64,000 nt of DNA, taken from Escherichia phage vB_EcoD-Elw. The DNA is taken from the sequence record OR621298. One strand, written 5' to 3'. The translations under genes were made by a program, and so were the position numbers. The notes below the pieces were generated by a model. That model searched no databases and was not told the DNA's origin. It saw only the letters and a list, made by a program, of their open reading frames with translations. Shown here piece after piece: positions 2,235 to 64,000 of this stretch (within the stretch, counting starts at the first letter, position 1; each line of letters starts with the position of its first letter).

Positions 2235-2262
2235 AGATTTATAAATTTGAGAGGAGAAAGAT

Positions 2263-3849: not shown

Positions 3850-4022
3850 TTAAATCTGTGTATACACACCCTGATGATATATTTGTATGGGCGGACGGTA
3901 GTTGGTGTTATCGCTGTGAGTTGTGGGAAATGGACTATAAATCCGATGACTATGGTGTTATATATGTGGATACGGTTGAGTATGATACGTTCTTAGAAAG
4001 GAACAAAAATGGAAATAAGTAA
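3840..4022 (+). CDS. hypothetical small protein
   Basis: 60-aa ORF, coupled starts. Confidence 0.3.
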   Translation: MSIIKSVYTHPDDIFVWADGSWCYRCELWEMDYKSDDYGVIYVDTVEYDTFLERNKNGNK

Positions 4023-4515: not shown

Positions 4516-4517
4516 AT

Positions 4518-4946
4518 ATGTTCAATAATGTATTCTCTAAAGAAGCTAACCCAATTTTGGTTAACTTTTGGCGTACTCTCCCGGCTAGCCTGTATAATGA
4601 GGCTATTAACTCCTTGAAAATATGGTGTGAGAATAACGAAATCTCCTTTGCTTTTAAAGATGATATTGATGAGGCCCCCTGTATTGGTCTAGTTGTGCAG
4701 GTAGAGGAGGGTCTTGAAGAGATTGTGGGCTGGAAAGAGTTAGACGAAATGGGCTTAGTTTTTGCGTTAAATTATAAGCTGTTTATGCCTGCTAAGCATC
4801 GCCTAGTTGTTAACTATAAAACTAGTGAATCTCCTGGTTTTCAGGTTAATGAACGTTATGGTTGGTCTTACTCACCGGAAGAAGTAAATGATGGTATCCA
4901 AAAACTTCGTCGTTTTGGTTATCAAATTCCGGGTTTAACCGCCTAA
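4518..4946 (+). CDS. hypothetical protein, tandem paralogue A
   Basis: 142 aa; shares DEAPCIGLVV, ELDEMGLVFALNY and YQIPGLT motifs with the next ORF. Confidence 0.5.
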   Translation: MFNNVFSKEANPILVNFWRTLPASLYNEAINSLKIWCENNEISFAFKDDIDEAPCIGLVVQVEEGLEEIVGWKELDEMGLVFALNYKLFMPAKHRLVVNYKTSESPGFQVNERYGWSYSPEEVNDGIQKLRRFGYQIPGLTA

Positions 4947-4955
4947 GGGGGCATA

Positions 4956-5348
4956 ATGGAACAAGTATATTGGCGTCAGATTGATCCTAGTTTGGTGAAG
5001 CGTGCGGAGAAGCTGCTACAACGTTGGTTGGTGGTAAGACAAGTCTCCTTCACTTTTCCGGAGCAGCAAACGGATGATCCATGCATTGGCGTTTTCCTGT
5101 CTGGATATGCCGGGGAATGGGAATTGGATTGGAATGAATTGTCTGCTATGGGCTTGATTGTTGCCCTAAACTTCTCTATATTCCATCCACGTGGTTTGGC
5201 CATATGTCGTGTGCCTGATGACGGTTGTTCGCCCCATCTTTTACAGGTGGAAGATGATATTTGGGAGTACACTCCAGATATTCTCGCAGAAGCTAAAGAA
5301 CAATTAAATCGTGTTGGGATTTATGTTCCGGGCTTAAATGATGGATGA
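4956..5348 (+). CDS. hypothetical protein, tandem paralogue B
   Basis: 130 aa; DDPCIGVF, ELSAMGLIVALNF and IYVPGLN motifs parallel the preceding ORF. Confidence 0.5.
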   Translation: MEQVYWRQIDPSLVKRAEKLLQRWLVVRQVSFTFPEQQTDDPCIGVFLSGYAGEWELDWNELSAMGLIVALNFSIFHPRGLAICRVPDDGCSPHLLQVEDDIWEYTPDILAEAKEQLNRVGIYVPGLNDG

Positions 5349-5439
5349 TTTTTATTAGCTAAACTCTGATTACCGAGTCATTTTGGCTCGGTTTTATCCG
5401 TACTTAAGACCAATGATAGCACCATCCGGAAAATTTTAC

Positions 5440-5468
5440 TTGCATGATGCCCAAAATCTTGATATAAT
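5440..5468 (+). promoter_or_regulatory. early sigma70 promoter with conserved leader
   Basis: TTGCAT 5440-5445 and TATAAT 5463-5468, 17-bp spacer; leader tatttatattgaattgagag. Confidence 0.6.
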
Positions 5469-5965
5469 ATTTATATTGAATTGAGAGACATTAGTAAAAA
5501 TTGATTTTGCTAATTTTTCTTGTTTACAATCCGCGATACGGAACAGTTAGGCTGCCCCATTAAGGGTTGTTTTAACTATTACTAGTGTTTATATTGCATT
5601 AGTTAATCTTCAATTAAGTGATCTGTGTACCCTGAATTCGGAAAGGTAAATCCAAACCGTGCATATTTAGCTCGTTATATAGGCAGAGTTTTATATGGGG
5701 GTGCGAACGAAAAGAGCAGCGAATGGCGGCACGTACAGTAGTCACCTACCAATAGGATAGTGAGGACAAATAGAATCGGCTTAGCGGCCAATGACCTAGG
5801 TTCTATTCTGTATATGAGCGAAGAGAGCACAGCACTGAGATATGATAACTTATTCATATTGCTTGATGATAATTAATGTTTACGTAAATAGTAGTAATAG
5901 TTGTTCTATTCTTTCTGAATAGTCCTAAAGAAAAGATTTCGATTAACCAACACAGGAGTATTGTT

Positions 5966-8755
5966 GTGTTTTCTATTCTCCAAGGTCACGCCGGATTTTC
6001 TCGTGATTTAGCAACAGGTATTTGGCGAGAAATCAAAGCGGAAGATTATACCTTTGCCAAGCGATTCTCGAAAAAGCATCCAGAAGGTAAACCAGCTTCT
6101 ATGCCCTTCAAATTTGATGTAATAGAAGAGCATGACCCGCAAAGCCTTGCCGAAATGTTACCACTTATGAGACGTTTAACGTCTGACCCTCATATCGTTG
6201 CGGTACGAGGTCGATGTCTTGCACCTAAAAATAACGTGCGACGTAAGAAAGGTAACTTTAATGTATCTAATCCTAGTAATATTATTGCTATGGACGTGGA
6301 TGGTATCCTAGATACCGGTGGGTATGACAAGTTTAACCTTGTTGGTATGGCCCGCCACATTATTAAGATGTTGAATAGTATTAGTGAGGACATGTTCCCT
6401 CTTGATGCAGGCTTTATAGCTCATGCATCGTCTTCGGCTGGGCTTAAACCAGGTATCCGAATGCACTTAATGCTAGAATCTAACGTCAAGGTAACTCAGG
6501 GTCAGTTAAAGTTCTTATTTACATCTATCAACGATAGTAGTAAGCAAAAATTTGGTTTTGATATTGCCGACTTAGCTTATTATTCATCTGTCCAGCTCCA
6601 CTATTTTGCCGACCCCTTATTTAGTGATGGTATTGTTGATCCGTTTAAAGCGGAGAGTAAGCCACGTCTGGTGTATGTTAAAGGTTCGAAAGTAAATTTG
6701 CCCAATAATCTGGTTGACTATGAAACAACTAGAGGGGAGTTTAAGGAAGAGTTTTATTCTTTACTTGATCAAATTAAAGGCAAAAAGATCGCGTCTGATA
6801 AAGTAGAAGAAACCATCAGCGAATTGGAAGAAGCTGAGGATGGGGTGTACCTGCGTATTATCCCCAAACTATACCATAGAGCATTAGAGGATGGTGTTGA
6901 TTTTGCATGGCTAGAACGTGAGATTAAACCCGCTTTATCTGAATATATTGCAACTAAAGATAACAGTCGTAATATTCAAGATTACTTTAATAACGGTCGT
7001 AAGCAGGCTCTCAAAGCGTTTGTTAATAATTCTAAACGTGAGATTCCATTAAATCTGAAAGGTGTTCCGCTCAAGAAGTTAGAAGTGGATTCTCCACCAG
7101 AAGTTCCGTACCTGAAGATTAACATTGTGCCTCCAAAAGGCCATATAACATTTGTTAAGGCAAGTCTTGGTACTGGTAAAACTACGGCAGTAACTAAATG
7201 GCTGGACGCAGGTGTTCTTCCTGGCAACTTTTTAGCAGTTACAAATACTAGAGCACTGGTATCTTCAAACGCTAAGAAATTTAGCGCAGGACAATATGAT
7301 AAGTCTGTAGATATGCTCAACTTTAAACGTGGAGCTATTGATCGTATGTCCACAACTATTCACTCTTTGCATAAGTTCAAAAGTTTTATTGGTCAAATAG
7401 ATACCATTTTTATTGATGAATGTGATGCTGTAATGAATGATCTATTATTCGCACCTGTTGTTAAGCAACGTCGCGAATGTATTCAAGTTCTACGTGACAT
7501 CCTCATGACAGCTAAAACTGTAATTCTATCAGATGGTGATATTAGTGCCGAAACTATTGAAGCATATGGTTCTCTAATTGATTTTGATAAACCAGTAGCA
7601 TTTTATAATCATCACCGTAAGATGCTGTCAAAAGCTCATGCTTATGAGTTCCCGGATGAGTCCAGTATTTGGGTTGCACTTCAGACTTCTCTAGAGATGG
7701 GTGAGAAATCTATCCTAGTATCTGATTGTGGGCCGGATGAACTGAATGAGAAGGGCATGGCGTTGCGTCGTAATACGGGTGCATTAGTTAAGGAAATCCA
7801 CTCAAACTCTACGTCTGATGTAGATATTAGACGTATTCTGGATTACACAACTAATGAGCTAATTGACCAACAAATTGATTGCTTATTATGTAGTCCATCT
7901 GTAACGAGTGGTGTTGACTTTAACTATTTTGATAACGTATTCGTTATCACTAGAACTAGCAACCAAGCGCCAAACATGCGTTTCCAAGCAATCAGGCGCG
8001 ACCGTGGTGCTCAGAATATCTATTATTTTATTGATAAATCCACTAGTGGGTTCTCCGCAGGTTCTGAACAATATAATATTGATGAAGGTTGGCTGGAGTT
8101 AGCACAGCAATTATACGCACGTCGCAGAGAACTAGAATCTAGGAACTATACTAGTACTTTACGTTATTACTTGCTTGATCAGGGTGCAACTATTGATATT
8201 TTCAGCGAAAGCTGGGGAACTATTGAAGGTGCTGGTAAAGAATACACAGAAGAGCGAATCAAAGCTATCCTACATTCAACTCCGGATTACTGTGCACCAC
8301 GTCATGCGGATGCGTATGAGGCTAAACTACTTCTTGTTCGCTATTATCATCTTGAGTCTATTAAAGATGTAACAGTTGAGCATGTTGAACAATATATCAA
8401 AGATAAACCGAATGATCGAGCTGCATTCTTCCATAAGATGCACGAGATGTTCTGGGAAGATATTAAGAAGTGTTCAAATGTGACCATTAAACCATTCATA
8501 GAGGCTCTGAAAGGTAAGAAGAAAGACTTCTTCCTTAAAACAGGTCAGAGTGCTAACCCAAAATATGCTAGAATGTATCTTGGTATGATGGGTATTGGTA
8601 AGGATATGAACACTGAAAATATTGTAGACTGGTACAGAACCTATTGTAAAATCGAGTGTATGCCAATCCCATATAAGTTTATGACTGATGAGGAGAAACA
8701 TATGCATGATGAAGCAATGGCAGAGCTAGGTGCTAGAAATGACAGTGAAGAATAA
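5966..8755 (+). CDS. P-loop NTPase, putative helicase or replication-initiation ATPase
   Basis: 929 aa; Walker A SLGTGKTTAV and DEAD-like IFIDECD; GTG start with AGGAG RBS. Confidence 0.55.
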   Translation: MFSILQGHAGFSRDLATGIWREIKAEDYTFAKRFSKKHPEGKPASMPFKFDVIEEHDPQSLAEMLPLMRRLTSDPHIVAVRGRCLAPKNNVRRKKGNFNVSNPSNIIAMDVDGILDTGGYDKFNLVGMARHIIKMLNSISEDMFPLDAGFIAHASSSAGLKPGIRMHLMLESNVKVTQGQLKFLFTSINDSSKQKFGFDIADLAYYSSVQLHYFADPLFSDGIVDPFKAESKPRLVYVKGSKVNLPNNLVDYETTRGEFKEEFYSLLDQIKGKKIASDKVEETISELEEAEDGVYLRIIPKLYHRALEDGVDFAWLEREIKPALSEYIATKDNSRNIQDYFNNGRKQALKAFVNNSKREIPLNLKGVPLKKLEVDSPPEVPYLKINIVPPKGHITFVKASLGTGKTTAVTKWLDAGVLPGNFLAVTNTRALVSSNAKKFSAGQYDKSVDMLNFKRGAIDRMSTTIHSLHKFKSFIGQIDTIFIDECDAVMNDLLFAPVVKQRRECIQVLRDILMTAKTVILSDGDISAETIEAYGSLIDFDKPVAFYNHHRKMLSKAHAYEFPDESSIWVALQTSLEMGEKSILVSDCGPDELNEKGMALRRNTGALVKEIHSNSTSDVDIRRILDYTTNELIDQQIDCLLCSPSVTSGVDFNYFDNVFVITRTSNQAPNMRFQAIRRDRGAQNIYYFIDKSTSGFSAGSEQYNIDEGWLELAQQLYARRRELESRNYTSTLRYYLLDQGATIDIFSESWGTIEGAGKEYTEERIKAILHSTPDYCAPRHADAYEAKLLLVRYYHLESIKDVTVEHVEQYIKDKPNDRAAFFHKMHEMFWEDIKKCSNVTIKPFIEALKGKKKDFFLKTGQSANPKYARMYLGMMGIGKDMNTENIVDWYRTYCKIECMPIPYKFMTDEEKHMHDEAMAELGARNDSEE

Positions 8756-8972
8756 AAAATGGGAAACAAGGAAGTTCCCAGTAAAAGAACGTAAAGTTCC
8801 TGTTTATGATACTTCGGAAAAGCTATGTAGGGTGGTACCACGTAGATTAGCTGGTATCCCTAACATATCCGAGTGGTTACTTAAACAACGGAAAACAAAC
8901 GTGTCTCTTCGCATCGGCTTTGAATTAGATAAAGTCTATGCTGAACTTGCTTCTTTGCTCAAGGAATCGTAA
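8730..8972 (+). CDS. hypothetical small basic protein
   Basis: 80-aa ORF overlapping the preceding stop. Confidence 0.3.
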   Translation: MLEMTVKNKKWETRKFPVKERKVPVYDTSEKLCRVVPRRLAGIPNISEWLLKQRKTNVSLRIGFELDKVYAELASLLKES

Positions 8973-8980
8973 AAATTTAT

Positions 8981-9009
8981 TTGCTTTCAGGAAAAATTTT
9001 CTGTATAAT
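8981..9009 (+). promoter_or_regulatory. early sigma70 promoter with conserved leader
   Basis: TTGCTT 8981-8986 and TATAAT 9004-9009, 17-bp spacer; leader ataaatttgagagaggag. Confidence 0.7.
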
Positions 9010-9040
9010 AGATTCATAAATTTGAGAGAGGAGTTTAAAT

Positions 9041-9745
9041 ATGGCCGGTTCTCGCAGAAAGAAACATATCCATGAAATCCCGGATGAAGTCTTTAAAAAA
9101 GTTATAGAGCATCTGGAGAACGGTGGTACTAAGAAAGCAGCTTGTGAGATGCTCGGCGTATCATCCAATCCAACTATGGAAAGGATGATTGAAGAGTGGC
9201 AAGACCGCCAGATTCAAGTTGCCGAAATGAAGAAAAAGAAACGTGGCACACTCATTGAAGGTATTGAGTTGGCCAACGTTATTGAACAGTATTTATCTGG
9301 TGATTCTTTTGAAGAGATTGCCGATCGTAATTATCGCTCTGTAGCAATGGTTAAATCTGTTCTGGAACGCTATGGTGCTCTGCTTCGTTTGAACGATATT
9401 GTAGACCCGTTGAATCCTCCTATTATTCCTGATGATGCTGTAGCAGAAGAATTTGAAGTTGGTGAGCTTGTTTGGGTTCCTGGATACCAGTGTATCGGTG
9501 AAATCAAAAAAGCAATGGATAATCCTGTTGGTTGCTACCGTGTATGGCTTCTATCGGAAGGCAAACAACAGAACGTTCATTATATGAATTATGAGCTGGC
9601 TTCTGTTAAACACCTGGAAAAGTTAGGAGTTGATGTAAAATCTCTGGGGTATAAATGGACTCGGGAAGAAGTCATTACGTTGATTAACGAAGCTGTTAAG
9701 GCCGCCTTGAAACTTGATAAAGAAAAAGGAAAACGCCGTGAGTAG
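9041..9745 (+). CDS. putative HTH DNA-binding early protein
   Basis: 234 aa; N-terminal HTH-like segment GGTKKAACEMLGVSSNPTMERM. Confidence 0.45.
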   Translation: MAGSRRKKHIHEIPDEVFKKVIEHLENGGTKKAACEMLGVSSNPTMERMIEEWQDRQIQVAEMKKKKRGTLIEGIELANVIEQYLSGDSFEEIADRNYRSVAMVKSVLERYGALLRLNDIVDPLNPPIIPDDAVAEEFEVGELVWVPGYQCIGEIKKAMDNPVGCYRVWLLSEGKQQNVHYMNYELASVKHLEKLGVDVKSLGYKWTREEVITLINEAVKAALKLDKEKGKRRE

Positions 9746-9989
9746 ACTAACTGATTTACTTAAAGATGGGGAAGTAAAAACACTATATCGTAGAAGCTGG
9801 GGTAACGATAATAACGGCTTAGTATTACTAACTTTAGATGCTGACTCGGATGTAGCTACTCAGCATACCTGGGTAGCCGGTAACTATCCATATAGCGAGG
9901 TTGTTTCATTAACAGTATGCGAAGCTATTGCAGACGATTGGGAGGTTGCCAGCATCGAGGATATGCTCGCTGTTGGCCTGGTGGAGTAA
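9714..9989 (+). CDS. hypothetical protein
   Basis: 91-aa ORF. Confidence 0.4.
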   Translation: MIKKKENAVSRLTDLLKDGEVKTLYRRSWGNDNNGLVLLTLDADSDVATQHTWVAGNYPYSEVVSLTVCEAIADDWEVASIEDMLAVGLVE

Positions 9990-10006
9990 CTACTTAAAAA
10001 TTTCAG

Positions 10007-10035
10007 TTGCTTAATCCTATAATTCTTGATATAAT
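10007..10035 (+). promoter_or_regulatory. early sigma70 promoter
   Basis: TTGCTT 10007-10012 and TATAAT 10030-10035, 17-bp spacer. Confidence 0.6.
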
Positions 10036-10092
10036 ATTCTCATAGTTTGAAAGAACTATTCTGTTTAATTCTTAATTAAGGAAATATAAAAT

Positions 10093-10503
10093 ATGACTAC
10101 TCCAACTCAGTGGACTGATGAACTGTTCGAAAAAATGTCTTCCGAATACGTTGCTCGTATGGAGCAATTCCCAGAGGATGAACGTCCTGGTGTTAGCATG
10201 GAAATTGTTAGCGAAATTGCCCAGGAAAATGGTGTAACTCCGAACGGTTTTCGTATGAAGCTAACTAAAGCAGGTTTGTACATCAAGAAAGCTGCTGGCT
10301 CTGCTTCTAAATCTAGTGCATCTACTGGAGAAAAAGCTTCTGGTGGTTCTCGCACTTCTAAAGCTAAAGCTCATGCCGACCTTCGTTCCGCATTCTCTGA
10401 TGCTGGCCTAGCACCAGATTTTCTGGATGATGCAATTATTGACAAACTGACCGGTAAAGCGGCTGCTCATCTGGCAGAAGCAATCCGAGCTATCACTAAG
10501 TAA
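10093..10503 (+). CDS. hypothetical Ala/Ser-rich early protein
   Basis: 136 aa; host-optimal codons suggest high expression. Confidence 0.5.
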   Translation: MTTPTQWTDELFEKMSSEYVARMEQFPEDERPGVSMEIVSEIAQENGVTPNGFRMKLTKAGLYIKKAAGSASKSSASTGEKASGGSRTSKAKAHADLRSAFSDAGLAPDFLDDAIIDKLTGKAAAHLAEAIRAITK

Positions 10504-10540: not shown

Positions 10541-10837
10541 ATGACTAAAGCTGAAATTATTGCACAGTGCGAAAAATTTGGTGAGTTTTATCTTCATTAC
10601 GAGAAACTTCGTCAGAAAGGAACCACGTACCTTCAGGGTACGATGGAATTTGATCCAGCCCAAGATAAATATCTGGCTGAGCGTATTAAACGTGAACGTA
10701 TTCGTAAAGCGAAAGATGATGAAATTCTTGTCTTCTCTCGTACTAATGATAGTTTCCGTTTTATTCCTGTCGAGAAAGTCCGTCGTGTGACTAGCCTCCA
10801 ATCAGAGTTAGATCGTGCTTCTCCAGTAGGCCGATAA
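10541..10837 (+). CDS. hypothetical protein
   Basis: 98-aa ORF with an AAGGA RBS. Confidence 0.5.
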   Translation: MTKAEIIAQCEKFGEFYLHYEKLRQKGTTYLQGTMEFDPAQDKYLAERIKRERIRKAKDDEILVFSRTNDSFRFIPVEKVRRVTSLQSELDRASPVGR

Positions 10838-16680: not shown

Positions 16681-19248
16681 TTGAAAATCGCAGTAGTTGA
16701 TAAAGCTCTAAACAACACTCGTTATGATAAACATTTCCAGCTATACGGCGAGGAAGTTGATGTATTCCATATGTGTAACGAGAAGTTATCTGGTCGTTTG
16801 CTTAAAAAGCACATTACTATTGGAACACCAGAAAACCCATTTGATCCGAATGATTATGATTTTGTTATACTAGTAGGTGCTGAACCTTTCCTGTACTTCG
16901 CAGGTAAGAAAGGCATTGGTGACTATACTGGTAAACGTGTAGAGTATAATGGATATGCTAACTGGATTGCGAGTATCAGCCCAGCCCAGTTACACTTTAA
17001 GCCTGAAATGAAACCAGTCTTTGATGCAACAGTAGAGAATATCCACGATATTATCAATGGTCGTGAGAAGATTGCAAAAGCTGGTGATTACCGTCCTATT
17101 ACTAACCCTGACGAGGCGGAAGAATATATCAAGATGGTGTATAATATGGTTATCGGACCTGTAGCATTCGACTCCGAAACCTCAGCACTATACTGTCGAG
17201 ATGGTTATCTGCTTGGCGTTTCTATGTCTCACCAAGAGTATCAGGGTGTATATATCGATTCTGATTGTCTCACAGAGGTTGCAGTATATTATCTCCAGAA
17301 AATTCTGGATAGTGAAAACCACACTATTGTTTTTCACAACTTGAAGTTTGATATGCACTTTTATAAGTACCATCTGGGACTTACTTTTGATAAAGCACAT
17401 AAAGAACGCAGGCTCCATGATACTATGTTGCAGCATTATGTTCTAGATGAGCGTCGTGGTACTCATGGCTTGAAATCTCTAGCAATGAAGTATACCGATA
17501 TGGGCGACTATGACTTTGAACTAGATAAGTTCAAGGATGATTACTGCAAAGCACATAAAATCAAGAAAGAAGATTTCACATATGATTTAATTCCGTTTGA
17601 TATTATGTGGCCTTACGCTGCAAAAGATACAGATGCTACCATACGTTTGCACAACTTCTTCTTACCAAAAATTGAGAAGAATGAAAAACTTTGCAGTCTG
17701 TATTATGATGTTCTAATGCCTGGTTGTGTATTTCTCCAGCGTGTTGAGGATCGTGGTGTACCTATTTCTATTGATCGTTTAAAAGAAGCTCAGTACCAGT
17801 TAACTCATAATCTGAATAAAGCTCGTGAGAAGCTGTATACTTATCCAGAAGTCGTTCAGCTAGAGAAAGATCAGAACGAAGCGTTTAACCCAAACTCTGT
17901 TAAGCAGCTACGTGTTCTTCTGTTTGATTATGTTGGCTTAACCCCAACAGGTAAATTGACGGATACTGGAGCAGACTCTACAGATGCAGAAGCTCTGAAC
18001 GAATTGTCTACGCAGCATCCAATTGCTAAGACTCTACTAGAGATTCGTAAGCTGACTAAGCTGATCTCTACTTACGTTGAGAAGATTCTTCTGAGCATTG
18101 ATGCTGATGGTTGCATTCGTACTGGCTTCCACGAACACATGACTACTTCTGGTCGTCTGAGTTCTTCTGGTAAACTGAACCTGCAACAGTTACCTCGTGA
18201 TGAATCTATTATCAAGGGTTGTGTGGTTGCACCACCTGGATACCGTGTAATCGCATGGGACTTAACAACTGCGGAAGTTTATTATGCTGCTGTTCTATCT
18301 GGTGATAGAAATATGCAACAGGTATTTATCAACATGAGAAATGAACCTGATAAATACCCTGACTTCCACTCTAACATCGCACACATGGTATTTAAGCTCC
18401 AATGCGAACCTCGTGATGTTAAAAAGTTATTCCCAGCTCTGCGTCAAGCAGCTAAAGCAATCACCTTTGGTATTCTGTATGGTTCTGGCCCAGCTAAAGT
18501 AGCTCATTCTGTTAACGAAGCTCTTCTGGAACAGGCTGCTAAGACAGGCGAACCGTTTGTAGAGTGTACTGTTGCAGATGCTAAAGAGTACATTGAAACT
18601 TACTTCGGTCAGTTCCCGCAGCTTAAGCGTTGGATTGATAAGTGCCACGATCAGATCAAGAATCATGGATTTATCTATAGTCACTTTGGTCGTAAACGTC
18701 GTCTGCATAATATCCACTCCGAAGACCGTGGTGTTCAGGGTGAAGAAATCCGTTCTGGATTTAACGCAATCATTCAGTCTGCTTCTTCTGATAGCCTCCT
18801 TTTAGGTGCGGTAGATGCAGATAATGAGATCATTTCTCTTGGCCTAGAACAAGAGATGAAGATTGTTATGCTGGTTCATGACTCCGTAGTTGCTATTGTT
18901 CGTGAGGATTTGATCGACCAATACAATGAAATCCTGATTCGTAATATTCAGAAAGACCGTGGTATCAGTATCCCTGGCTGTCCGATTGGTATTGATTCTG
19001 ATTCTGAGGCTGGAGGTTCTCGTGACTACTCCTGTGGTAAGATGAAGAAACAGCATCCATCAATCGCTTGTATTGATGATGATGAATATACTCGTTATGT
19101 CAAGGGTGTATTACTTGATGCAGAGTTCGAGTATAAGAAACTAGCTGCAATGGATAAAGAGCATCCAGATCATAGCAAGTACAAGGATGATAAGTTTATT
19201 GCTGTATGTAAAGATCTGGATAACGTGAAAAGGATTCTCGGTGCTTAA
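16681..19248 (+). CDS. family A DNA polymerase with 3'-5' exonuclease domain
   Basis: 855 aa; exo motif FDSETSALY; TTG start with AGAGGAGAT RBS; size matches the T5 polymerase as recalled. Confidence 0.85.
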   Translation: MKIAVVDKALNNTRYDKHFQLYGEEVDVFHMCNEKLSGRLLKKHITIGTPENPFDPNDYDFVILVGAEPFLYFAGKKGIGDYTGKRVEYNGYANWIASISPAQLHFKPEMKPVFDATVENIHDIINGREKIAKAGDYRPITNPDEAEEYIKMVYNMVIGPVAFDSETSALYCRDGYLLGVSMSHQEYQGVYIDSDCLTEVAVYYLQKILDSENHTIVFHNLKFDMHFYKYHLGLTFDKAHKERRLHDTMLQHYVLDERRGTHGLKSLAMKYTDMGDYDFELDKFKDDYCKAHKIKKEDFTYDLIPFDIMWPYAAKDTDATIRLHNFFLPKIEKNEKLCSLYYDVLMPGCVFLQRVEDRGVPISIDRLKEAQYQLTHNLNKAREKLYTYPEVVQLEKDQNEAFNPNSVKQLRVLLFDYVGLTPTGKLTDTGADSTDAEALNELSTQHPIAKTLLEIRKLTKLISTYVEKILLSIDADGCIRTGFHEHMTTSGRLSSSGKLNLQQLPRDESIIKGCVVAPPGYRVIAWDLTTAEVYYAAVLSGDRNMQQVFINMRNEPDKYPDFHSNIAHMVFKLQCEPRDVKKLFPALRQAAKAITFGILYGSGPAKVAHSVNEALLEQAAKTGEPFVECTVADAKEYIETYFGQFPQLKRWIDKCHDQIKNHGFIYSHFGRKRRLHNIHSEDRGVQGEEIRSGFNAIIQSASSDSLLLGAVDADNEIISLGLEQEMKIVMLVHDSVVAIVREDLIDQYNEILIRNIQKDRGISIPGCPIGIDSDSEAGGSRDYSCGKMKKQHPSIACIDDDEYTRYVKGVLLDAEFEYKKLAAMDKEHPDHSKYKDDKFIAVCKDLDNVKRILGA

Positions 19249-35986: not shown

Positions 35987-36065
35987 AGTTAATTTCTCCT
36001 CTTTAATAACAATATTATAATAGTATTAGAAAATTTTATCAAGAAATTTTTATTTTTCCATAAAG

Positions 36066-55736: not shown

Positions 55737-57401
55737 TTACGCAAAAAATTTACCGTTCTTAAAATCGATCAAAGTACGCTGACCATTTGCATAGGTAATT
55801 AAATGCGTTTGTGTCCAGCTTGACGCGCCAACGTTGTAACCCATGTCCAGACTACCAGCCACGCCAGCGGTATATACCCCGCCGTAAATGCTGGCGGTAT
55901 GAGTGTGCCCCGTGTTTAATTTGCCCAATTTCTTAAACTGTTTCGGATTGCCACGGCTGCCGTTTATGCCATTGTGACCGTGTACGCCGCATTCAATGCC
56001 TGCAATTTTAAATGATTGGTCAGTCGTTAGGAAAATGGCGTTAAACTCGCAACCTGCAACCTTACGCAGCGCATAATCTAGCACGTTGAAAGTATCGTCT
56101 TTTTCTGCAATAGCTCCGTAAATCGCGGCATTCAGGCGGTGATATAGTTCCGCGTTCGCTGGGTCGTCTTTAATGTTAGCATTACGATCATCAAGCCAAC
56201 GGGATAGCGCCAAATCGTGATTCGATTCAACAATGATTGTTTGCGAGAAATCGCGCTCCATTGATTCCAGTACGCGCCCCGTATCGATGAGATCATCCAG
56301 AACTTTATCACGTCCGGCGGCGTATTGTTTTGCTAGGAATACACCCGAAGCGCGGTTGTGATGGTTGCGTGATGTAAAATCGTGAACGTCATGGATAAAC
56401 TGATATTTTGGTTTAAGAATATCAAGCAAGCTATTTTCGCCAGCCCATGACGCAATGGCACAATCATCATCAAGTTTTTCGGCGTGTATGTCGCCATATT
56501 GCAAGCCTAAAACATGCCCCGATGTTTCATAGCATCCGGCGGGAGTAGCGCAAACATTCAGATCATAAAACACCCCGCTTTCGTCCATTGTTTCAAGCTG
56601 GCGAACAAAAAACTCACCGTCTTCGTCGAACTCAACAATCAGCGCACCGAAGTTATGCAGTGCTTCCGCTTTCTGTCCTGCTTTCTGCTGGATGTAATTT
56701 TTAAGCGTTGCCGTGCCAGTTGAATACATGCGGCGCACTACTTCACCTTTTAAAGCTGGCACGCTTTCGGCGGTGATTTTAGCGTGACCAATTGCCAGAC
56801 CTTCCAGATTAAGCGCGGTTGCAGTTTCAGCGAATCCAGAAAGCGGATAATCTGCGGTGGGCAAAACATTAATTTCAGCCATGAAAGCAAAACGGCGATT
56901 ATTCAAAAACACGTTTTTGCTGCAAATATATTTATCGAACGCGGAATCATATTTTATTCCATCCGCGCCCTCGCCATTTTGGAATCCGTTTTTATTATAA
57001 ATATACTTGCTAACCAGCAAATCAGCGCCGATATATTTAGCAAATTGCTCCAGTGAGGCTAAAAAGTTTTTATGCGGGAACGTATTATTCTGAATCGATG
57101 TAATAATAAAGCGTTTGCCTTGTTTTACTTCCCAGCTTTCCACCGTGCTAGAAACAATCCCCGCCGCTTCTGGGCGCTCATCGTTTTTAATGGCTTTTGC
57201 TACTTTCGCCGCTTTCGGTTTCGCTGGTTTATTTGCTTCCAGCCAATCACAAATAGCGGTGGAATGTTTTGGAGTATCGTAAACCGCTTTTGATATATCG
57301 TCACAAACTTCCAATTTAGTGGCGCGCAGGCGTTTACCGTAGAAATTAAAGTCAGCGGCCATTTTCAGGATAACGGTTTGTTTTTCTGCGGAAATAATCA
57401 T
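55737..57401 (-). CDS. A1: A1-like pre-early protein, metallophosphoesterase-fold nuclease
   Basis: 554 aa; calcineurin-like motifs GDIH, ESNHD, HGH, GHTH; size close to the 556 aa I recall for T5 A1. Confidence 0.7.
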   Translation of the reverse strand: MIISAEKQTVILKMAADFNFYGKRLRATKLEVCDDISKAVYDTPKHSTAICDWLEANKPAKPKAAKVAKAIKNDERPEAAGIVSSTVESWEVKQGKRFIITSIQNNTFPHKNFLASLEQFAKYIGADLLVSKYIYNKNGFQNGEGADGIKYDSAFDKYICSKNVFLNNRRFAFMAEINVLPTADYPLSGFAETATALNLEGLAIGHAKITAESVPALKGEVVRRMYSTGTATLKNYIQQKAGQKAEALHNFGALIVEFDEDGEFFVRQLETMDESGVFYDLNVCATPAGCYETSGHVLGLQYGDIHAEKLDDDCAIASWAGENSLLDILKPKYQFIHDVHDFTSRNHHNRASGVFLAKQYAAGRDKVLDDLIDTGRVLESMERDFSQTIIVESNHDLALSRWLDDRNANIKDDPANAELYHRLNAAIYGAIAEKDDTFNVLDYALRKVAGCEFNAIFLTTDQSFKIAGIECGVHGHNGINGSRGNPKQFKKLGKLNTGHTHTASIYGGVYTAGVAGSLDMGYNVGASSWTQTHLITYANGQRTLIDFKNGKFFA

Positions 57402-57753: not shown

Positions 57754-58170
57754 TTATTCGCCTGCGGCTTGTTTCACTTCATCGGCAACGCCTAACAGTT
57801 GCGCCACGGCGTCCAGCGTTTCCAGTTTTGCGCTTTCCAGTGATGCCAGATCGTCGGCGTCTTTGATAATGCCGGAATCGATAGCGTGTTTTGCAATAAC
57901 GCGCACATAATGCGCTTTGCGGATTGAGCTACCGCCGCCAACTTTGCGCGGCTTATCGCTTTTCTGATACGCTTTTGCGCTGGTCAATTTTGAGCGAACG
58001 GACACGGGGGAGGCCGCGCCAACTGCTTTTGCAATCTCTTTCAGGCCGTCGCTATTTGCGAAATCTAAACCGTTTTCATTAATTAACTGCTGGTACATGG
58101 TAACAGCTTTTTGGGTGTTTTCTTCATTCCATGCAAATTTTGCGGATTTTTCGGTTTTAACGTTAGCCAT
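57754..58170 (-). CDS. A2-like pre-early protein (putative)
   Basis: 138 aa; position directly upstream of A1; assignment by synteny only. Confidence 0.4.
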   Translation of the reverse strand: MANVKTEKSAKFAWNEENTQKAVTMYQQLINENGLDFANSDGLKEIAKAVGAASPVSVRSKLTSAKAYQKSDKPRKVGGGSSIRKAHYVRVIAKHAIDSGIIKDADDLASLESAKLETLDAVAQLLGVADEVKQAAGE

Positions 58171-58955: not shown

Positions 58956-59242
58956 ATCGTCGATTCCTTATAATGTATAAGTTTACCGCCGATAGGCTTT
59001 AAGATGTACCCAATTTTTAAAGAGCGCGGCGGTAAACTTCCCGCCGTGTAGTTCGTCATTGCCGCCCTACGAGATAAATAATAGGGGATTCCCGAAAATG
59101 GCGCAACCTTATTTTTGTAAAGAAATGTAAAGACAAACGCCACCGGACACCATGCGGCGACCGGGGCGCGGCGCATTAAAATTAAAAGAAACGGGCGCGC
59201 GAATACCATAAAACCCAGCAGGTTGGCAAGTAATTTTTTCAT
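58952..59242 (-). CDS. hypothetical protein with N-terminal hydrophobic segment (doubtful)
   Basis: 96-aa ORF; weak RBS; its coding sequence contains inverted-repeat copy B. Confidence 0.3.
   Translation of the reverse strand: MKKLLANLLGFMVFARPFLLILMRRAPVAAWCPVAFVFTFLYKNKVAPFSGIPYYLSRRAAMTNYTAGSLPPRSLKIGYILKPIGGKLIHYKESTI
58988..59012. repeat. 25-bp perfect inverted repeat, copy B, with nested local stem
   Basis: gccgataggctttaagatgtaccca; flanked by gtttaccgcc (58981-58990) and ggcggtaaac (59028-59037). Confidence 0.85.
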
Positions 59243-59411
59243 TTATATTTGCCTTGCCCTACTTGACAAAACTTAAAAAGCTCGTGGTAGCGATAAACGA
59301 GGGTAGGCAATGCAATGGCATGGCTAAAACTTTCATCGCGTTCTAGGGCGTTTTAGGCGCATTCTAGCCTTGTTGATAACTTATCCCCAAAAGCAAAAAT
59401 GAAATTTTCCT

Positions 59412-59448
59412 AGTTATCCACTTGACTTTTATTTTCCAGTGGATAACT
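59412..59448. promoter_or_regulatory. inverted pair of DnaA-box-like sites
   Basis: agttatccac-17bp-gtggataact; each half is TTATCCACt, one mismatch from the consensus TTATCCACA. Confidence 0.5.
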
Positions 59449-59594
59449 ACTTATTTTATGAAATAAATTAATTGACTTTTATTTGTTAGTATGCATCGGA
59501 AGAATAGCAGACTAATAATTACTAGAATAATAATCATGCTGGTGGATTGTAACGGCCTAAACTATCAGCAGACTATTAATCACGAAAAATCTCG

Positions 59595-59625
59595 TTAGCT
59601 AACTAACTATTTCATGATGTATAAT
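59595..59625 (+). promoter_or_regulatory. candidate sigma70 promoter with early-type leader
   Basis: TATAAT at 59620-59625 followed by atacatataaatt, as in the early promoters; -35 weak. Confidence 0.35.
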
Positions 59626-59741
59626 ATACATATAAATTAATGAGAAATAATAATTATAATAAATAATAACTACAGTAAATAATAACTATAAGAAACTATC
59701 GGCCTAAGTGAGAACCACTATCATTTAAGTTATACACAAAG

Positions 59742-59811
59742 TTATCCACAGCACTTTTTGACTTTACACGATAGGCGGCGATATAAGGACTTTTACACAG
59801 ACTTATCCACA
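59742..59811 (+). promoter_or_regulatory. two consensus DnaA boxes bracketing a candidate promoter
   Basis: TTATCCACA at 59742-59750 and 59803-59811; TTGACT 59758-59763 and TATAAG 59782-59787 lie between them. Confidence 0.5.
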
Positions 59812-60104
59812 GGTTATTCCACTGTATAAATATACAGGGTAAAAAGGTAGTGTTAACAACTGCAATCAATTTTAAGCGGCTTAAATCGCATTCTAACGAG
59901 CTAAACGCTGCGGGGTAATATTAAAGTAAAGCCTTAATGCGTCACCCTGGTGGCTTCGCCGTGGTTTGCTCTTTATTGCACCGCTGCGCGGTTAGCATAA
60001 AAATAGGCGCTAGGCAAGGAAAATAAAAAGGTAAAATAATATTTGCCTATGCTAGAAATTTACCTTTATCATTCACTCACCGATTAACGAGGGAGGCCGA
60101 ACAA

Positions 60105-61115
60105 ATGAGGCTTTATAAACCTGATAATGCCACCGTTTTAAAAGGTGCATTGCGCAACCTGCTGGATGGTAGCAAGTCAACCAGCATTAAACATTTTATT
60201 AACAAGATTGAAACTATTCATCAAAACTTTTTTGATGATTATGACGCTTATGATATGGATAGTTTTCTACCCTTATATAGACAAGGGGCAACGCTAGTTT
60301 TATATAATCGGGATTGCCATATCTTTACAGGCAGGGGAGCGGGGCCGGATACCGATTTTATTGTTGCGCAGGGTAATAATATTGTTGCGTATCATAGCAA
60401 TTCAGGCCGTCAATCATTTAATATAAATAGTTTTGAGCTTATTGGACTTGATCTGATAAATGGACTTTCTAGCATTGAGGGATTTTTAGATGTTATCTGG
60501 AAGTATTTACCCGCTGGATGGCATAAGCCGGATAACGACGGATCTCAATATACCGGTATAATGGCTTTTGATGGCGACGGTAATTTTTTGTTACCACGGG
60601 AGCTATACCCATATATTTATGATGGGGATATAGAAAGCGCTGGTTTTTCTTTCTGGAAAGATGAAGATCAGATTATTGACAGCGTAGAAAACCATGCTGT
60701 AAATTCTAACACTCAAAGCGTTAACACTCAAACTACTGAAAACAAAGGAAAAAACACTATGACCAAGATTGCTAACATCGTTGCCGCTAATAAATCCGCC
60801 GTTGTAAATGCTGCAAAACTGGAAGCGGGTAAAATTGCACTGACTCAAATTACGAAAGTAGCGGCTAAAAAAGCACCGTTTATGATTAAAGGTTATATTG
60901 ATACACCTATCGGTCGAGTAGTGATTGCCAACCTGCTGGGCGTAGCGGTTGACCAGTACGCCACAAGTAACCAAAAGGCGAAAGCGGTGGCAGGTGCAGC
61001 TATGGAAGCGGCTATGTTAGAAATGGTGCAAAGTTTTAACATCGCTGAGATGATTGATGAAATGGTAAAAGGTATTGATATTTCTACTTTTACCACTAGC
61101 ACCGAAAGCGAGTAA
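60105..61115 (+). CDS. hypothetical pre-early protein
   Basis: 336 aa; first gene of the rightward cassette; GGGAGG RBS. Confidence 0.55.
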   Translation: MRLYKPDNATVLKGALRNLLDGSKSTSIKHFINKIETIHQNFFDDYDAYDMDSFLPLYRQGATLVLYNRDCHIFTGRGAGPDTDFIVAQGNNIVAYHSNSGRQSFNINSFELIGLDLINGLSSIEGFLDVIWKYLPAGWHKPDNDGSQYTGIMAFDGDGNFLLPRELYPYIYDGDIESAGFSFWKDEDQIIDSVENHAVNSNTQSVNTQTTENKGKNTMTKIANIVAANKSAVVNAAKLEAGKIALTQITKVAAKKAPFMIKGYIDTPIGRVVIANLLGVAVDQYATSNQKAKAVAGAAMEAAMLEMVQSFNIAEMIDEMVKGIDISTFTTSTESE

Positions 61116-61180
61116 TAATATTAAGCGGGGATTGTTACCCCGCTTTACTATTCCCTTGTTAACTAATAGGAGGCTAATAA

Positions 61181-61675
61181 ATGGCTGATGAAAAATATGG
61201 CTTCTCACTGGGAGAAGTGAGCACGGCAAAACATGATATGATCATTTTGGTCGATTGTCATACTGGCTATTGCGGGGAAGGGAACACCGAGGAATATTTT
61301 GTTCCTGCTGGTACGGATCTGGACGCTTTCGCTCAGGAAATGGCTATTGATAATGCTTCTCGTTTTGGTAGCGATGGTTACGAAGACGAAGAAACTGGCG
61401 AATGGTATGAAAATGAAAACGTATATGCAAGCCTTTATCATTATCAATTAAGTAAATCCGGCACATATGTAAACGGCGGCGATCCTATTAATTCCGTCAT
61501 GAGATTAATTATTAAATATGGCGGCGTCGAGATAGTTGGTAACAAAGCGGTAATATACGCAAATCGATTAAAACAGCTTGTTTATATTCCTGATAGTACC
61601 CGATGGGATGAATATGCTGTTTTGCATGACGAATTGAAACGATGTTTCAATATTGAATCCTTACAAGTAGTCTAA
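61181..61675 (+). CDS. hypothetical strongly acidic pre-early protein
   Basis: 164 aa, about 29 Asp+Glu versus 11 Lys+Arg; AGGAGG RBS. Confidence 0.55.
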   Translation: MADEKYGFSLGEVSTAKHDMIILVDCHTGYCGEGNTEEYFVPAGTDLDAFAQEMAIDNASRFGSDGYEDEETGEWYENENVYASLYHYQLSKSGTYVNGGDPINSVMRLIIKYGGVEIVGNKAVIYANRLKQLVYIPDSTRWDEYAVLHDELKRCFNIESLQVV

Positions 61676-61780
61676 TGTAAAGTTTTGTAAAGGTCGCCTT
61701 TTATGGTGGCCTTTTTTGTTATAATGCCTTTACACCGTTTGAGGACGGTTGAAAATTTTCCCAAAAATTGGAGGCTTAAA

Positions 61781-62011
61781 ATGGTTGCTTATTCTTCTGC
61801 TAGTCATCTGTTCACCGCTCAAGGCTGGGTATCTAACCGCGTTATTATTCACGAAATGGTGCAAGAATATGGCATTGCTAAAACATACAATACCATTCAG
61901 GCGCTTTATGATAATGATCAAATCGATCAGCAAACGGCGGGCTTTTTGCTGGATACCCTGAAAGCAGAACATTGCACCAAAAAACAAGCGGCTAAAATTG
62001 TTTTAATGTAA
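61781..62011 (+). CDS. hypothetical small protein
   Basis: ATG at 61781 with GGAGG RBS; the ORF track starts further upstream. Confidence 0.45.
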   Translation: MVAYSSASHLFTAQGWVSNRVIIHEMVQEYGIAKTYNTIQALYDNDQIDQQTAGFLLDTLKAEHCTKKQAAKIVLM

Positions 62012-62052
62012 TTAATAACGGGGCGTTATTTTCGCCCCACTAACTAGGGGGA

Positions 62053-62208
62053 ATGAAAATGGTTATTTTTCGAGCTATTTTAGCGGGTATCTTGGGCGCT
62101 ATTTTATCGTTGTTTGCAATAGCTTTCGGCGTTCACGCGGTTATTATTGGCGCGGGTATCGCTGCATTTTCTTATCTGCTGGGCTGCATGACTAGTAAAG
62201 GAGAATAA
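62053..62208 (+). CDS. small hydrophobic membrane protein, 51 aa (not in ORF track)
   Basis: ATG 62053; MKMVIFRAILAGILGAILSLFAIAFGVHAVIIGAGIAAFSYLLGCMTSKGE. Confidence 0.4.
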   Translation: MKMVIFRAILAGILGAILSLFAIAFGVHAVIIGAGIAAFSYLLGCMTSKGE

Positions 62209-62210
62209 AA

Positions 62211-62423
62211 ATGATCCGCAATGTTTCCCTTGCCCGTTCGAAAGGCTTTAAGCTGGTGGATGTTAACACGTTCGAGCGTGAAGATTGTAAAATCGAATAT
62301 GTAGCACGTAATAAGAATGCCTTTCGTGTTACAGAAAAGAAATTTGACAAGCGCGGCAACGTGATCGCTGAAACGGTTAAACACTTTGCCACCTTTTACG
62401 CTGCGTTTCGTGGGGTGTTATAA
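62211..62423 (+). CDS. hypothetical small protein
   Basis: 70 aa; AAAGGAGAA RBS. Confidence 0.5.
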   Translation: MIRNVSLARSKGFKLVDVNTFEREDCKIEYVARNKNAFRVTEKKFDKRGNVIAETVKHFATFYAAFRGVL

Positions 62424-62424
62424 A

Positions 62425-62769
62425 ATGGTTATTTATGAGGGCAACCGCTTTGTTGCTAATTGCCGCCCTGCATTGCTAGCAAATTACTTAAATCAGCTTT
62501 CACCAGCTTATAAGGGCGTTATTAATATTTATGAAGGCAAGGCGCATTATAAAATCAATGCGGTCGTTGCCCGTGAACTAGCGTTTCAATTTTTGACCTT
62601 TGCATCTTGTGACGTTCAGGTCATGGGTGAAGCGTTAATTGCAGAAAATGAAGATGATTTTATTAATATTTTTCGCAAGATATGCACCGAGCGCCTGATA
62701 ATGAAAGGCGCTTATATTCAATCCACTGCGGATAGTATTGAAACAGCGTTTCGAAAGGTGGCGCAATGA
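62425..62769 (+). CDS. hypothetical protein
   Basis: Start placed at ATG 62425, just after the upstream stop. Confidence 0.45.
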   Translation: MVIYEGNRFVANCRPALLANYLNQLSPAYKGVINIYEGKAHYKINAVVARELAFQFLTFASCDVQVMGEALIAENEDDFINIFRKICTERLIMKGAYIQSTADSIETAFRKVAQ

Positions 62770-62969
62770 GCAATAAAATTGTTGTAACCAAAATCAGTAC
62801 AATGGTTGATGTTTTTTACGTGCCCGATACGCCGGAAAACCGGCAAGCGGTCGAGCGTGGCGAGTATGATAAAGTGATTTATGATCACGATGGTTATTAT
62901 CAGCATTTGGTCGATTCCTATGGGGAAGAGGAAAAGATCACGCATCAATTACCGGAGGATGGTTTATGA
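62766..62969 (+). CDS. hypothetical small acidic protein
   Basis: 67 aa; overlapping start and stop. Confidence 0.45.
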   Translation: MSNKIVVTKISTMVDVFYVPDTPENRQAVERGEYDKVIYDHDGYYQHLVDSYGEEEKITHQLPEDGL

Positions 62970-63221
62970 AACGATGGTTTAATCACTGGTATAAGCGGTT
63001 TTTAGTACGCCGTCGCAAATCTAGACATCAAGATGAGTGGCGGGAGTGGGCAAAGCGTAACGGTTGCCCGCTACTCTGAGAACGACGGGGATTAGCTCCC
63101 CGTTTTTCCATGCCTCCAGTTAAATACCCCCTTGTTTTAGTATCCCCACCAAAATTAAACGCGTTAGAATGCGATCTAGGACGTTTTAGCGGTATATTAG
63201 AATTATTCACTACATAGGAAT

Positions 63222-63332
63222 ACTGTATATTTATACAGTAGGATAAGCTGTGGATAAGTCTGTTAATAACGCCTCAAAATGGCTAGGATTCTGTCAAGTC
63301 AAATCGTGCTGTTAATAAGTCTGTGGATAACT
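63222..63332. promoter_or_regulatory. DnaA boxes (inverted orientation) and palindrome
   Basis: TGTGGATAA at 63249-63257 and 63322-63330; palindrome actgtata-tt-tatacagt at 63222-63239. Confidence 0.55.
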
Positions 63333-63344
63333 TAAATAATAGTG

Positions 63345-63506
63345 TTTCTCACTTCCATTCTTAAATGCAAATCATTATCATTCGCATTTCACTTTCTAAA
63401 TGAGAATCATTTCACTTCTTGAATAGTTCTCATTTCACTTTTTAAATGCGAATTATTATCATTCTCATTTCGCTTTTTAAATGATTCTTATTATCATTCG
63501 CATTCA
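63345..63506. repeat. five degenerate ~30-bp direct repeats
   Basis: Units of form tt(t/c)tTAAATG(c/a)gAAT(t/c)ATTATCATTCGCATTTCAC, imperfect, no unique spacers. Confidence 0.7.
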
Positions 63507-63509
63507 GGC

Positions 63510-63536
63510 GCGCAGGGCAATTGCCCTGCGCTTTTG
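63510..63536 (+). terminator. GC-rich palindrome with T-tract
   Basis: gcgcagggc-aatt-gccctgcgc followed by tttt. Confidence 0.45.
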
Positions 63537-63757
63537 TGCAAATCCGACATTGCTCCACGGGTGTTACGTGCGGGCGTGTATGTGCGAATCCGACAATTTT
63601 TGGTAGTGTGCAAATCCGACCCGAAAAATTTTTATAGTGTGCAAATCCGACAATGAATTTTCCCAAAAACTCCAGCAATCCGATGCTGCGCATCAATCCT
63701 GTGGAATTAGCTAGAATATGTGCAAATCCGACATGGGTTTATTTGTGCGAATCCGAC
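63536..63757. repeat. six direct 13-bp iterons GTGC(A/G)AATCCGAC
   Basis: Copies at 63536, 63582, 63608, 63639, 63720 and 63745, same orientation; degenerate copy near 63674. Confidence 0.75.
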
Positions 63758-64000
63758 AAGATTTTTGTGACTTTGATTGGAGGGTGTGTGATTGTATGGG
63801 TTTGAGGAGAAGATGAGAGAGCGAGAAAAATTTGAGGGAACTGTGAGAGGGGCGCAGGATTGGTGCGGAGCACCTGATTTGCGGGGATTTTGGGGAAGAG
63901 TTGAGATAATTTGGGAAGATTTGGGATAGGTGCAGATAAAGTAAAATTTTATTAGCAAAACGAGGCAAAATAGCTTGACAAGTGAAAATTTCTGTGGCTC

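Follow-up and report, generated by a model that had tools for sequence, protein, structure and literature searches.

The right-hand part of a stretch of 64,000 nucleotides from Escherichia phage vB_EcoD-Elw (sequence record OR621298), referred to here as the window, contains an operon of seven rightward open reading frames (ORFs) that is flanked by two inverted repeats, the left and the right arm. Each arm carries a series of DnaA boxes and a palindrome that resembles the binding site of the SOS repressor LexA. In a megablast search, positions 59000-64000 matched 470 phage records, nearly all of them T5-like phages of Escherichia and Salmonella (the best at ~92%). The same segment corresponds to 4963-10407 of phage MM-1, in which a long terminal repeat (LTR) is annotated at 1-10407, and because the match runs to the last position of this 10407-bp LTR, the window and the terminal repeat end together. 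A1 and A2 are encoded by the leftward ORFs 55737-57401 and 57754-58170, respectively, both upstream of the repeat pair. The identity of these two genes, together with the position inside the annotated LTR, identifies the region as the pre-early, first-step-transfer (FST) DNA of a T5-like phage (Tequintavirus group). The repeat pair is situated to the right of dmp-A1-A2, with the right arm close to where the terminal repeat ends; at ~9.15-9.3 kb from the left end (~7.8% of the genome), this arm is roughly at the point where transfer stops. No plasmid in PLSDB matches the region, and a reading of it as a plasmid origin was dropped for this reason. The best matches to known RNA families in the region were far under the Rfam gathering scores.

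The inverted repeat pair and its counterpart in T5

The two arms (Table 1) align without gaps over 147 nt, of which 111 are identical (76% complementarity), and a MAFFT alignment of the left and right arm regions likewise contains zero gaps. A chance origin of this inverted repeat is excluded, as shuffles of one arm (n=20,000) gave 40 +/- 5 matches with a maximum of 59, compared with the 111 observed (z = 13.5). The repeat is extended by a further 32-nt pair with 78% identity, located on the operon side of the arms. A previous sequence-only reading of the window had recognised the pair from two short matches. One of them, in which 63248-63262 is the exact reverse complement of 59798-59812 (cagacttatccacag), was confirmed. 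The other is reverse-complementary, as described, although over 11 nt and not 12 (59741-59751 and 63321-63331), and it is off the register of the full alignment by one 12-bp DnaA-box step. The palindrome reported for both loci is indeed present, as CTGTATAAATATACAG at 59822-59837 and CTGTATATTTATACAG at 63223-63238. Inverted repeats with DnaA boxes around the ORFs were also correctly proposed, but the length of ~45 bp given for them was too short; in the pairwise alignment of the two segments the similarity extends well past the 9-bp DnaA boxes.

Four perfect TTATCCACA boxes occur in the 64-kb window, all of them inside the two arms. Each arm contains two pairs of DnaA boxes in the same orientation, with 3 bp between the boxes of a pair and a start-to-start distance of 61 bp between the pairs. 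Since the arms are inverted, both DnaA arrays point inward to the rightward operon. In the direction of the operon, an arm consists of the conserved block AAGTGAGAAnCACTAT..ATTTAAG and the DnaA pairs 1 and 2, separated by a spacer in which TTGAC is invariant, followed by a DnaA-like box (TTATCCTAC or TTATTCCAC) overlapping the palindrome, and the CGCATTCTAA motif is found just inside each arm. Inspection by eye for a hexamer that could act as partner of the conserved TTGAC, considered as a -35 or an extended -10 element directed toward the palindrome, revealed none that is consistent across the arms.

This element is the inverted repeat pair already published for T5. Davison (2020; bioRxiv 10.1101/866236) described a 131-bp IRC-spacer-IRD in Repeat Region 2 that recurs in inverted form, as IRD'-spacer-IRC', where Repeat Region 3 starts. 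Together, the copies contain eight DnaA or DnaA-like boxes in four pairs, 3 bp apart and at constant spacing, while the distance between the copies varies from 1851 to 4258 bp, and some T5-like phages carry the right copy only. On its right, the element is closely followed by the shear point by which the FST DNA is defined. It was proposed in the same work that membrane-bound DnaA holds these sites and thereby stops injection, the element being part of the injection stop signal. According to Davison, earlier descriptions date from 1987 and from the genome sequence of 2005; papers from 2023 and 2026 characterise the region as repeats, palindromes and DnaA boxes with a poorly understood mechanism. 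Because the same repeat pair is described by Davison, the pair as it was first noticed in the window represents a further example of a documented T5 feature rather than new knowledge. The injection-stop function ascribed to it is hypothetical.

LexA-type boxes and the conservation of the arms

The palindromes at the inner ends of the arms have the features of LexA boxes, for which the textbook consensus is TACTG(TA)5CAGTA. The right-arm palindrome, TACTGTATATTTATACAGTA, is one position off this consensus and is the sole match in the window at three or fewer mismatches, against 0.01 expected. An approximate LexA matrix, symmetrised over both strands, was also constructed from 26 E. coli SOS boxes. 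On this matrix the two palindromes are the top two of ~64,000 positions, with 25.2 and 21.3 bits. The training boxes themselves score 12.8-23.5 bits (median 19.9), all below the right-arm box, and the background of the window is -27 +/- 9. The third-best score, 16.3 bits, belongs to AGCTGTATACTTATCCAGAA at 17831-17850, which contains the DnaA-like TTATCCAGA and may be a chance match. In a consensus scan for promoters, the -10 element of a predicted leftward promoter fell in the left LexA-type box, while the right arm contained no convincing promoter. From these motifs we infer that DnaA and LexA bind the arms. A link of LexA or the SOS response to T5 or to T5-like first-step DNA was not found in the literature that was searched, although the descriptions of 1987 and 2005 may hold a mention. 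The interpretation of the palindrome as a LexA box, the depth of its conservation and its occurrence in other phages thus appear to be new, as far as could be checked.

Comparison of the arms among T5-like phages drew on 31 arms of each side, taken from MM-1 and from genomes in IMG/VR (213 alignment columns for 211-nt sequences). The 62 arms align nearly gap-free. The LexA box is kept in all of them, with scores of 16.6-25.2 bits on the left and 23.0-25.2 bits on the right. Its half-sites are invariant or nearly so, while the centre (alignment columns 133-136) is either AAAT or its reverse complement ATTT, having switched independently in left and right arms of different phages. Due to this switch the two arms of T5 carry the same palindrome sequence on the same strand and not inverted copies. 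Such a flip of the centre between fixed half-sites would be expected for the site of a symmetric dimer. In the 12-20-kb loci of the relatives, CTGT-N8-ACAG is confined to the arms, and perfect DnaA boxes are almost confined to them.

The identity of orthologous arms between phages is 83% for the left and 90% for the right arm. In contrast, the two arms within one phage are ~70% identical, which is close to the value for the two arms of different phages (0.710 versus 0.703; permutation p = 0.007). Since orthologous arms are far more alike than paralogous ones, the duplication of the arm predates the radiation of these phages. The duplicated arms are held by selection on shared motifs and not by recent transposition or gene conversion. 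The distance between them ranges from 1.6 to 4.1 kb among the relatives. Gene order and orientation were compared in two of these, with 1.7-kb and 4.1-kb versions. In both, the core phrog 5145-5607-4227-4379 is collinear and identically oriented, and the differences consist in the loss of the first gene pair or in additional genes.

More distant members of the family were followed via A1, namely a Klebsiella phage (74% identical), Serratia phage Kamaji (61%), and the Vibrio phages 234P1 (34%) and Chester (33%). They contain two, three, five and five perfect DnaA boxes, respectively, against ~0.15 expected (estimated for three loci), and all four contain CTGTAT-N4-ATACAG boxes. Both types of boxes are located in non-coding DNA beside the divergent operon. 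In the Klebsiella phage and 234P1 they flank the operon on both sides, whereas Kamaji and Chester yielded an exact LexA-type box on a single side. Three of the four phages still show inverted repeats of 65-96 nt around the operon. When these sequences were aligned jointly with the closer relatives, the only columns invariant in all were the LexA half-sites and one DnaA box. The LexA-type box, with the DnaA boxes, is the most deeply conserved part of the element. The surviving sites match two host proteins of constant specificity in Gammaproteobacteria, which makes binding of host proteins more likely than a phage-specific site that evolves fast. Between the phages of E. coli and Vibrio, A2 retains 42% identity. 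Rhizobium phage RHEph10, chosen because its alphaproteobacterial host has a different LexA motif, encodes an A1 homologue amid lysis and replication genes, outside a T5-like first-step region, and so is uninformative on the LexA motif.

The composite pattern, defined as TTATCCACA followed after 6-14 nt by CTGTAT-N4-ATACAG, was found in 58 IMG/VR stretches, mostly T5-like genomes; an 86-kb contig among them has an A2-like gene. The same search in 596 Gb of bacterial genomes yielded seven matches, which is about the level of chance (2-10 by our own estimate). Two groups of contigs with the composite do not look T5-like in the examined stretches. Those of ~45 kb encode DNA polymerase A, a primase-helicase, CobT/CobS-like proteins and tail fibres, and those of ~37 kb encode terminase, portal and endolysin. 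In both groups the composite is situated in a divergent intergenic region, and in the ~45-kb group it abuts a very A+T-rich stretch. In both, a tandem TTATCCACAGGTTATCCACA, which was not required by the search, abuts the LexA-type box, sometimes on both sides. Examples of this module, tandem TTATCCACAGGTTATCCACA with CTGTAT-N4-ATACAG, in these metagenomic phage contigs are located at 10574-10609 of locus L068 and at 6464-6500 of locus L091.

Other features of the pre-early locus

Coordinates of the arms, their boxes and the features between and beside them are listed in Table 1.

Table 1. Features of the inverted repeat pair and its surroundings in the window
Feature	Position	Strand	Remarks
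Left arm, T5 IRC-spacer-IRD (Repeat Region 2)	59706-59852	+	Non-coding DNA separating the leftward A2-A1 operon from the rightward pre-early one; aligns in register with 30 further left arms
Left-arm DnaA pair 1	59730-59750	+	TTATACACA 59730-59738, 3 bp, TTATCCACA 59742-59750
Left-arm DnaA pair 2	59791-59811	+	TTTTACACA 59791-59799, 3 bp, TTATCCACA 59803-59811
Left-arm third DnaA-like box, TTATTCCAC	59814-59822	+	Overlaps the LexA-type box
Left LexA-type (SOS) box, CACTGTATAAATATACAGGG	59820-59839	.	16/20 to consensus TACTGTATATATATACAGTA; 21.3 bits, second-best in the window
Predicted sigma-70 promoter-like site	59829-59856	-	TTAACA, 16 nt, TATATT; 10/12 consensus matches only; -10 inside the LexA-type box
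Left repeat extension with CGCATTCTAA motif	59874-59905	+	Partner of 63155-63186
Rightward pre-early operon, 7 ORFs	60105-62969	+	Between the arms
T5 gene 011 homologue (DUF7566)	60105-61115	+	Family scans; T5 function from bioRxiv 10.64898/2026.04.02.716235
Homologue of the Ung-dependent nickase gene 015	62211-62423	+	Family scans; T5 function from bioRxiv 10.64898/2026.04.02.716235
Probable intrinsic terminator of the rightward operon	63086-63108	+	cggggattagctccccg then ttttt; by reading; unlisted by the consensus scan
Right repeat extension with CGCATTCTAA motif	63155-63186	-	Partner of 59874-59905
Right arm, T5 IRD'-spacer-IRC' (start of Repeat Region 3, proposed injection-stop region)	63208-63354	-	~650-790 bp from the terminal-repeat end
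Right LexA-type (SOS) box, TACTGTATATTTATACAGTA	63221-63240	.	19/20 to consensus; 25.2 bits, best in the window
Right-arm DnaA-like box, TTATCCTAC	63238-63246	-	Overlaps the LexA-type box (its TACTGT)
Right-arm DnaA pair 2	63249-63269	-	TTATCCACA 63249-63257, TTATTAACA 63261-63269
Right-arm DnaA pair 1	63310-63330	-	TTATTAACA 63310-63318, TTATCCACA 63322-63330
Non-coding repeat field adjoining the right arm	63346-63764	+	Outside the inverted repeat; injection-stop region; compare Davison's DRE and DRD repeats

The motif CGCATTCTAR (CGCATTCTAA) is present at 59358-59367, 59887-59896 and 63164-63173, three copies against 0.34 expected, and only in pre-early non-coding DNA. The relatives from Klebsiella, Serratia and Vibrio carry similar but not identical motifs, CATTCTAAGCG or GATTCTAAGC, which often form short inverted repeats, and CGCATTCTAR is a candidate protein site. 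The probable terminator downstream of the rightward operon is similar to a hairpin at 61126-61154.

The non-coding DNA to the left of the left arm contains further DnaA-like boxes. At 59411-59449, two facing boxes, TTATCCACT, 9 nt apart, form a 15-nt inverted repeat (93%), and more one-mismatch boxes are present at 59371-59389; these boxes probably correspond to Repeat Region 1 of Davison. A perfect 16-nt inverted repeat, 59214-59229 and 60925-60940 (CCCAGCAGGTTGGCAA and TTGCCAACCTGCTGGG; an estimated ~0.003 expected in 5 kb), is located on the coding strands of a 96-aa leftward ORF and of the gene 011 homologue, where both copies would encode LANLLG. The repeat field on the other side, beside the DnaA boxes of the right arm, resembles an iteron plasmid origin. 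Within it, 58-nt repeats rich in A+T (63346-63519) are succeeded by a perfect G+C-rich hairpin, GCGCAGGGCAATTGCCCTGCGC, with TTTT after it (63510-63531), and then by the TGTGCRAATCCGACA repeats (63526-63764), of which there are at least 6 copies.

Two sequences taken to be mapped T5 promoters were compared with the window, although this assignment may be wrong. That of P_H207 is absent from both the window and the LTR of T5. The sequence that we take to be P_D/E20 (TTGATAAAATTTTCCAATACTATTATAAT) has a one-mismatch match at 36014-36042 on the minus strand, far from the pre-early region. A 2026 preprint puts P_D/E20 next to hdi, unlike this match, so that either the assignment or the naming differs.

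Possible roles of the arms and related systems

Two-step injection of T5 DNA was first described about 60 years ago, and the repeat pair is the leading cis-acting candidate for its mechanism. The most probable explanation, to which we assign a probability of about 0.6, treats the arms as ancient cis-acting sites, maintained by selection, at which complexes of host proteins would mark and hold the boundaries of the first-step DNA. Each arm would serve as a fixed landing pad for the DnaA and LexA that pre-exist in the host cell, and the resulting complexes would be positioned at both boundaries of the right half of the FST DNA. The right arm is presumably the important one because it is better conserved between phages, always contains a near-perfect LexA box and is positioned near the point where transfer stops; the region for injection stop and pre-early control would have this arm as its core, and the left arm would be a dispensable auxiliary copy. 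The participation of LexA could make the complex responsive to the breakdown of host DNA that the phage triggers. T5 destroys the host chromosome within minutes (bioRxiv 10.64898/2026.04.02.716235). It may be speculated that this destruction, followed by activation of RecA and removal of LexA, provides a readout of the takeover.

Several considerations weigh against this explanation. In T5, a deletion that extends from hegG to 017 leaves a viable mutant with small plaques (bioRxiv 10.64898/2026.04.02.716235). The HNH endonuclease gene that Davison (10.1101/866236) places between Repeat Regions 1 and 2 is taken here as hegG, and since the left arm lies between this gene and gene 011, it is probably absent from the mutant. 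Pairing or looping of the arms is therefore probably non-essential, given that the left arm is also absent in some T5-like phages. Moreover, proteins bound to DNA that is already inside the cell do not obviously halt the entry of more DNA, and as of 2026 the mechanism of the injection stop is described as poorly understood. The composite in the ~37-45-kb contigs that do not look T5-like speaks for a wider role in regulation or replication; its occurrence in apparently unrelated phages suggests a recurrent phage module and weakens a reading specific to T5 injection. Finally, A2, conserved as it is between the E. coli and Vibrio phages, could bind the palindrome instead of LexA.

A more far-reaching version, which we consider rather unlikely, supposes that the arms are composite DnaA-LexA operators in which cleavage of LexA, after the A1-dependent destruction of the chromosome, remodels the complex and so releases second-step transfer or switches the pre-early programme, possibly as a general phage device for sensing the state of the host. 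If this were true, the module of DnaA pair and LexA box shared with the ~37-kb and ~45-kb phages would represent an undescribed general reader of host state.

The main rival to the boundary-holding function is transcriptional control. The arms would then be operators only, at which DnaA and LexA co-repress the pre-early promoters, as at uvrB, keeping part of the pre-early programme silent until host DNA damage, with cleavage of LexA, or a change in DnaA status, and would have no role in transfer. In favour of this, the left arm is located within a divergent control region, the 10/12 leftward promoter-like site has its -10 in the LexA-type box, the DnaA-like box overlaps that box in a manner comparable to uvrBp3, and the composite of other phages is also found in divergent intergenic regions. 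However, it is the right arm that is better conserved (90%, box of 23-25 bits), and this arm is situated downstream of a probable terminator without a convincing promoter. The three pre-early promoters that have been characterised experimentally in T5 are assigned to hdi or its immediate vicinity and to the DNA ahead of gene 011 (bioRxiv 10.64898/2026.04.02.716235), and the likely gene 011 promoter in the window (TTGCCT, 18 nt, TATCAT, 60043-60072) is ~200 bp away from the LexA-type box. A purely transcriptional role is thus unlikely, even though it ranks first among the rivals. It is considerably less probable that the palindrome is the operator of a phage protein, for which the dimeric A2, perhaps with A1, would be the candidate, the likeness to an SOS box being coincidence or mimicry. 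A2 is a DNA-binding dimer required for second-step transfer, its homologues extend to the Vibrio phages with 42% identity, and such palindromes have been listed as candidate cleavage sites, cut or recognised to restart transfer (Davison, 10.1101/866236). Nevertheless, a 19/20 match to the LexA consensus that includes the outer TA positions (0.01 expected per window), the same type of box in contigs without A2 in the examined stretch, and a variable centre between fixed CTGTAT/ATACAG half-sites, which is the LexA pattern, argue against a phage operator.

The right arm and its neighbours could also form a module that resembles an origin or serves recombination, with a function in early replication or in the joining of the two terminal repeats, and with the left arm as a duplicated remnant. 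The combination of a LexA box, four DnaA boxes, A+T-rich 58-nt repeats and the TGTGCRAATCCGACA run resembles iteron plasmid origins, and in the ~45-kb phages the composite abuts a very A+T-rich stretch; the A+T-rich repeats of the window adjoin the right arm only, and no 13-mer-type element was identified. On the other hand, no replication-initiator gene is present beside the repeats, and to our knowledge LexA boxes are not a feature of known origins. Davison (10.1101/866236) noted a resemblance to oriC as well, but the same work places the T5 origins, as mapped, near the genome centre and the replication genes among those silent in the first-step stage. This reading is regarded as very improbable. 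The sequence-only reading had further suggested a modular or formerly mobile cassette, and the arms might accordingly be its ends, or mainly recombination sites for swapping gene modules. Inverted repeats do bracket a block of 1.6-4.1 kb among the relatives, and the gene content at the two ends of this block differs between phages, so that the term modular is justified in a weak sense; mobility is not. No transposase, integrase or recombinase was found among the seven ORFs in PHROG and Pfam scans, all of which match T5-type pre-early families (DUF7566, the gene 015 nickase family and small unknowns). The flanks CTATCGGCCT... and ...CCATTCTTAA share no direct repeat that would indicate a target-site duplication. 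The two arms agree at only 76% of their positions, predate the radiation of the phages and are almost free of gene conversion (0.710 versus 0.703), the core genes keep their order and orientation, and the host-protein sites of which the arms consist persist in the Vibrio phages. Neither presence/absence polymorphism nor a different site was seen, both arms being at the same place in 31/31 phages. The mobile-element reading was rejected on the basis of the ORF scans, the comparison of the flanks and the paralogous versus orthologous identity of the arms, and little credence can be given to any variant of it. The alternative offered alongside it, paired protein-binding sites, fits the evidence, since each arm contains DnaA boxes and a LexA-type box in a register kept in 31 relatives.

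The closest known system is the T5 repeat pair itself. It occupies the same place, between A2 and the terminal-repeat end, is likewise inverted around the variable right half of the pre-early region, and has the same four pairs of DnaA or DnaA-like boxes, 3 bp apart and at constant spacing; the arms of T5 and of the window align in register. Structurally the two do not differ, and the arms contain eight DnaA-type boxes in the window and seven in T5. The published descriptions of T5 that were consulted name palC, palD and the DnaA boxes but never LexA or SOS, and it is the LexA-type box that the present interpretation adds.

Interleaved DnaA and LexA boxes, with one DnaA box overlapping the LexA box, are known from E. 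coli uvrB, where the two proteins can compete or cooperate and co-repress the gene through the overlapping boxes (Wurihan et al. 2018, PMC6015884). Unlike the phage arms, which are away from mapped promoters, the right one especially, uvrB is a host promoter with mapped starts, and in bacterial genomes the phage composite occurs only at about chance frequency. Boxes in the same orientation at fixed helical phasing, two opposite arrays, and A+T-rich and iteron-like neighbours are shared with oriC, iteron plasmid origins and DnaA-titrating sites. In those clusters, however, the boxes are within ~250 bp, whereas the phage arrays are 3.4 kb apart and have a LexA box attached, and no origin activity has been mapped here.

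LexA-controlled switches are also known from CTX-phi and, with tum, from coliphage 186. In phage GIL01 (PMC4551915), as in the arms, a site for the SOS repressor of the host is part of the control DNA of the phage. However, systems of the GIL01 type belong to temperate phages, in which LexA senses damage for induction, while the T5-like phages are virulent and carry their LexA-type boxes in the DNA that enters first, beside the DnaA boxes.

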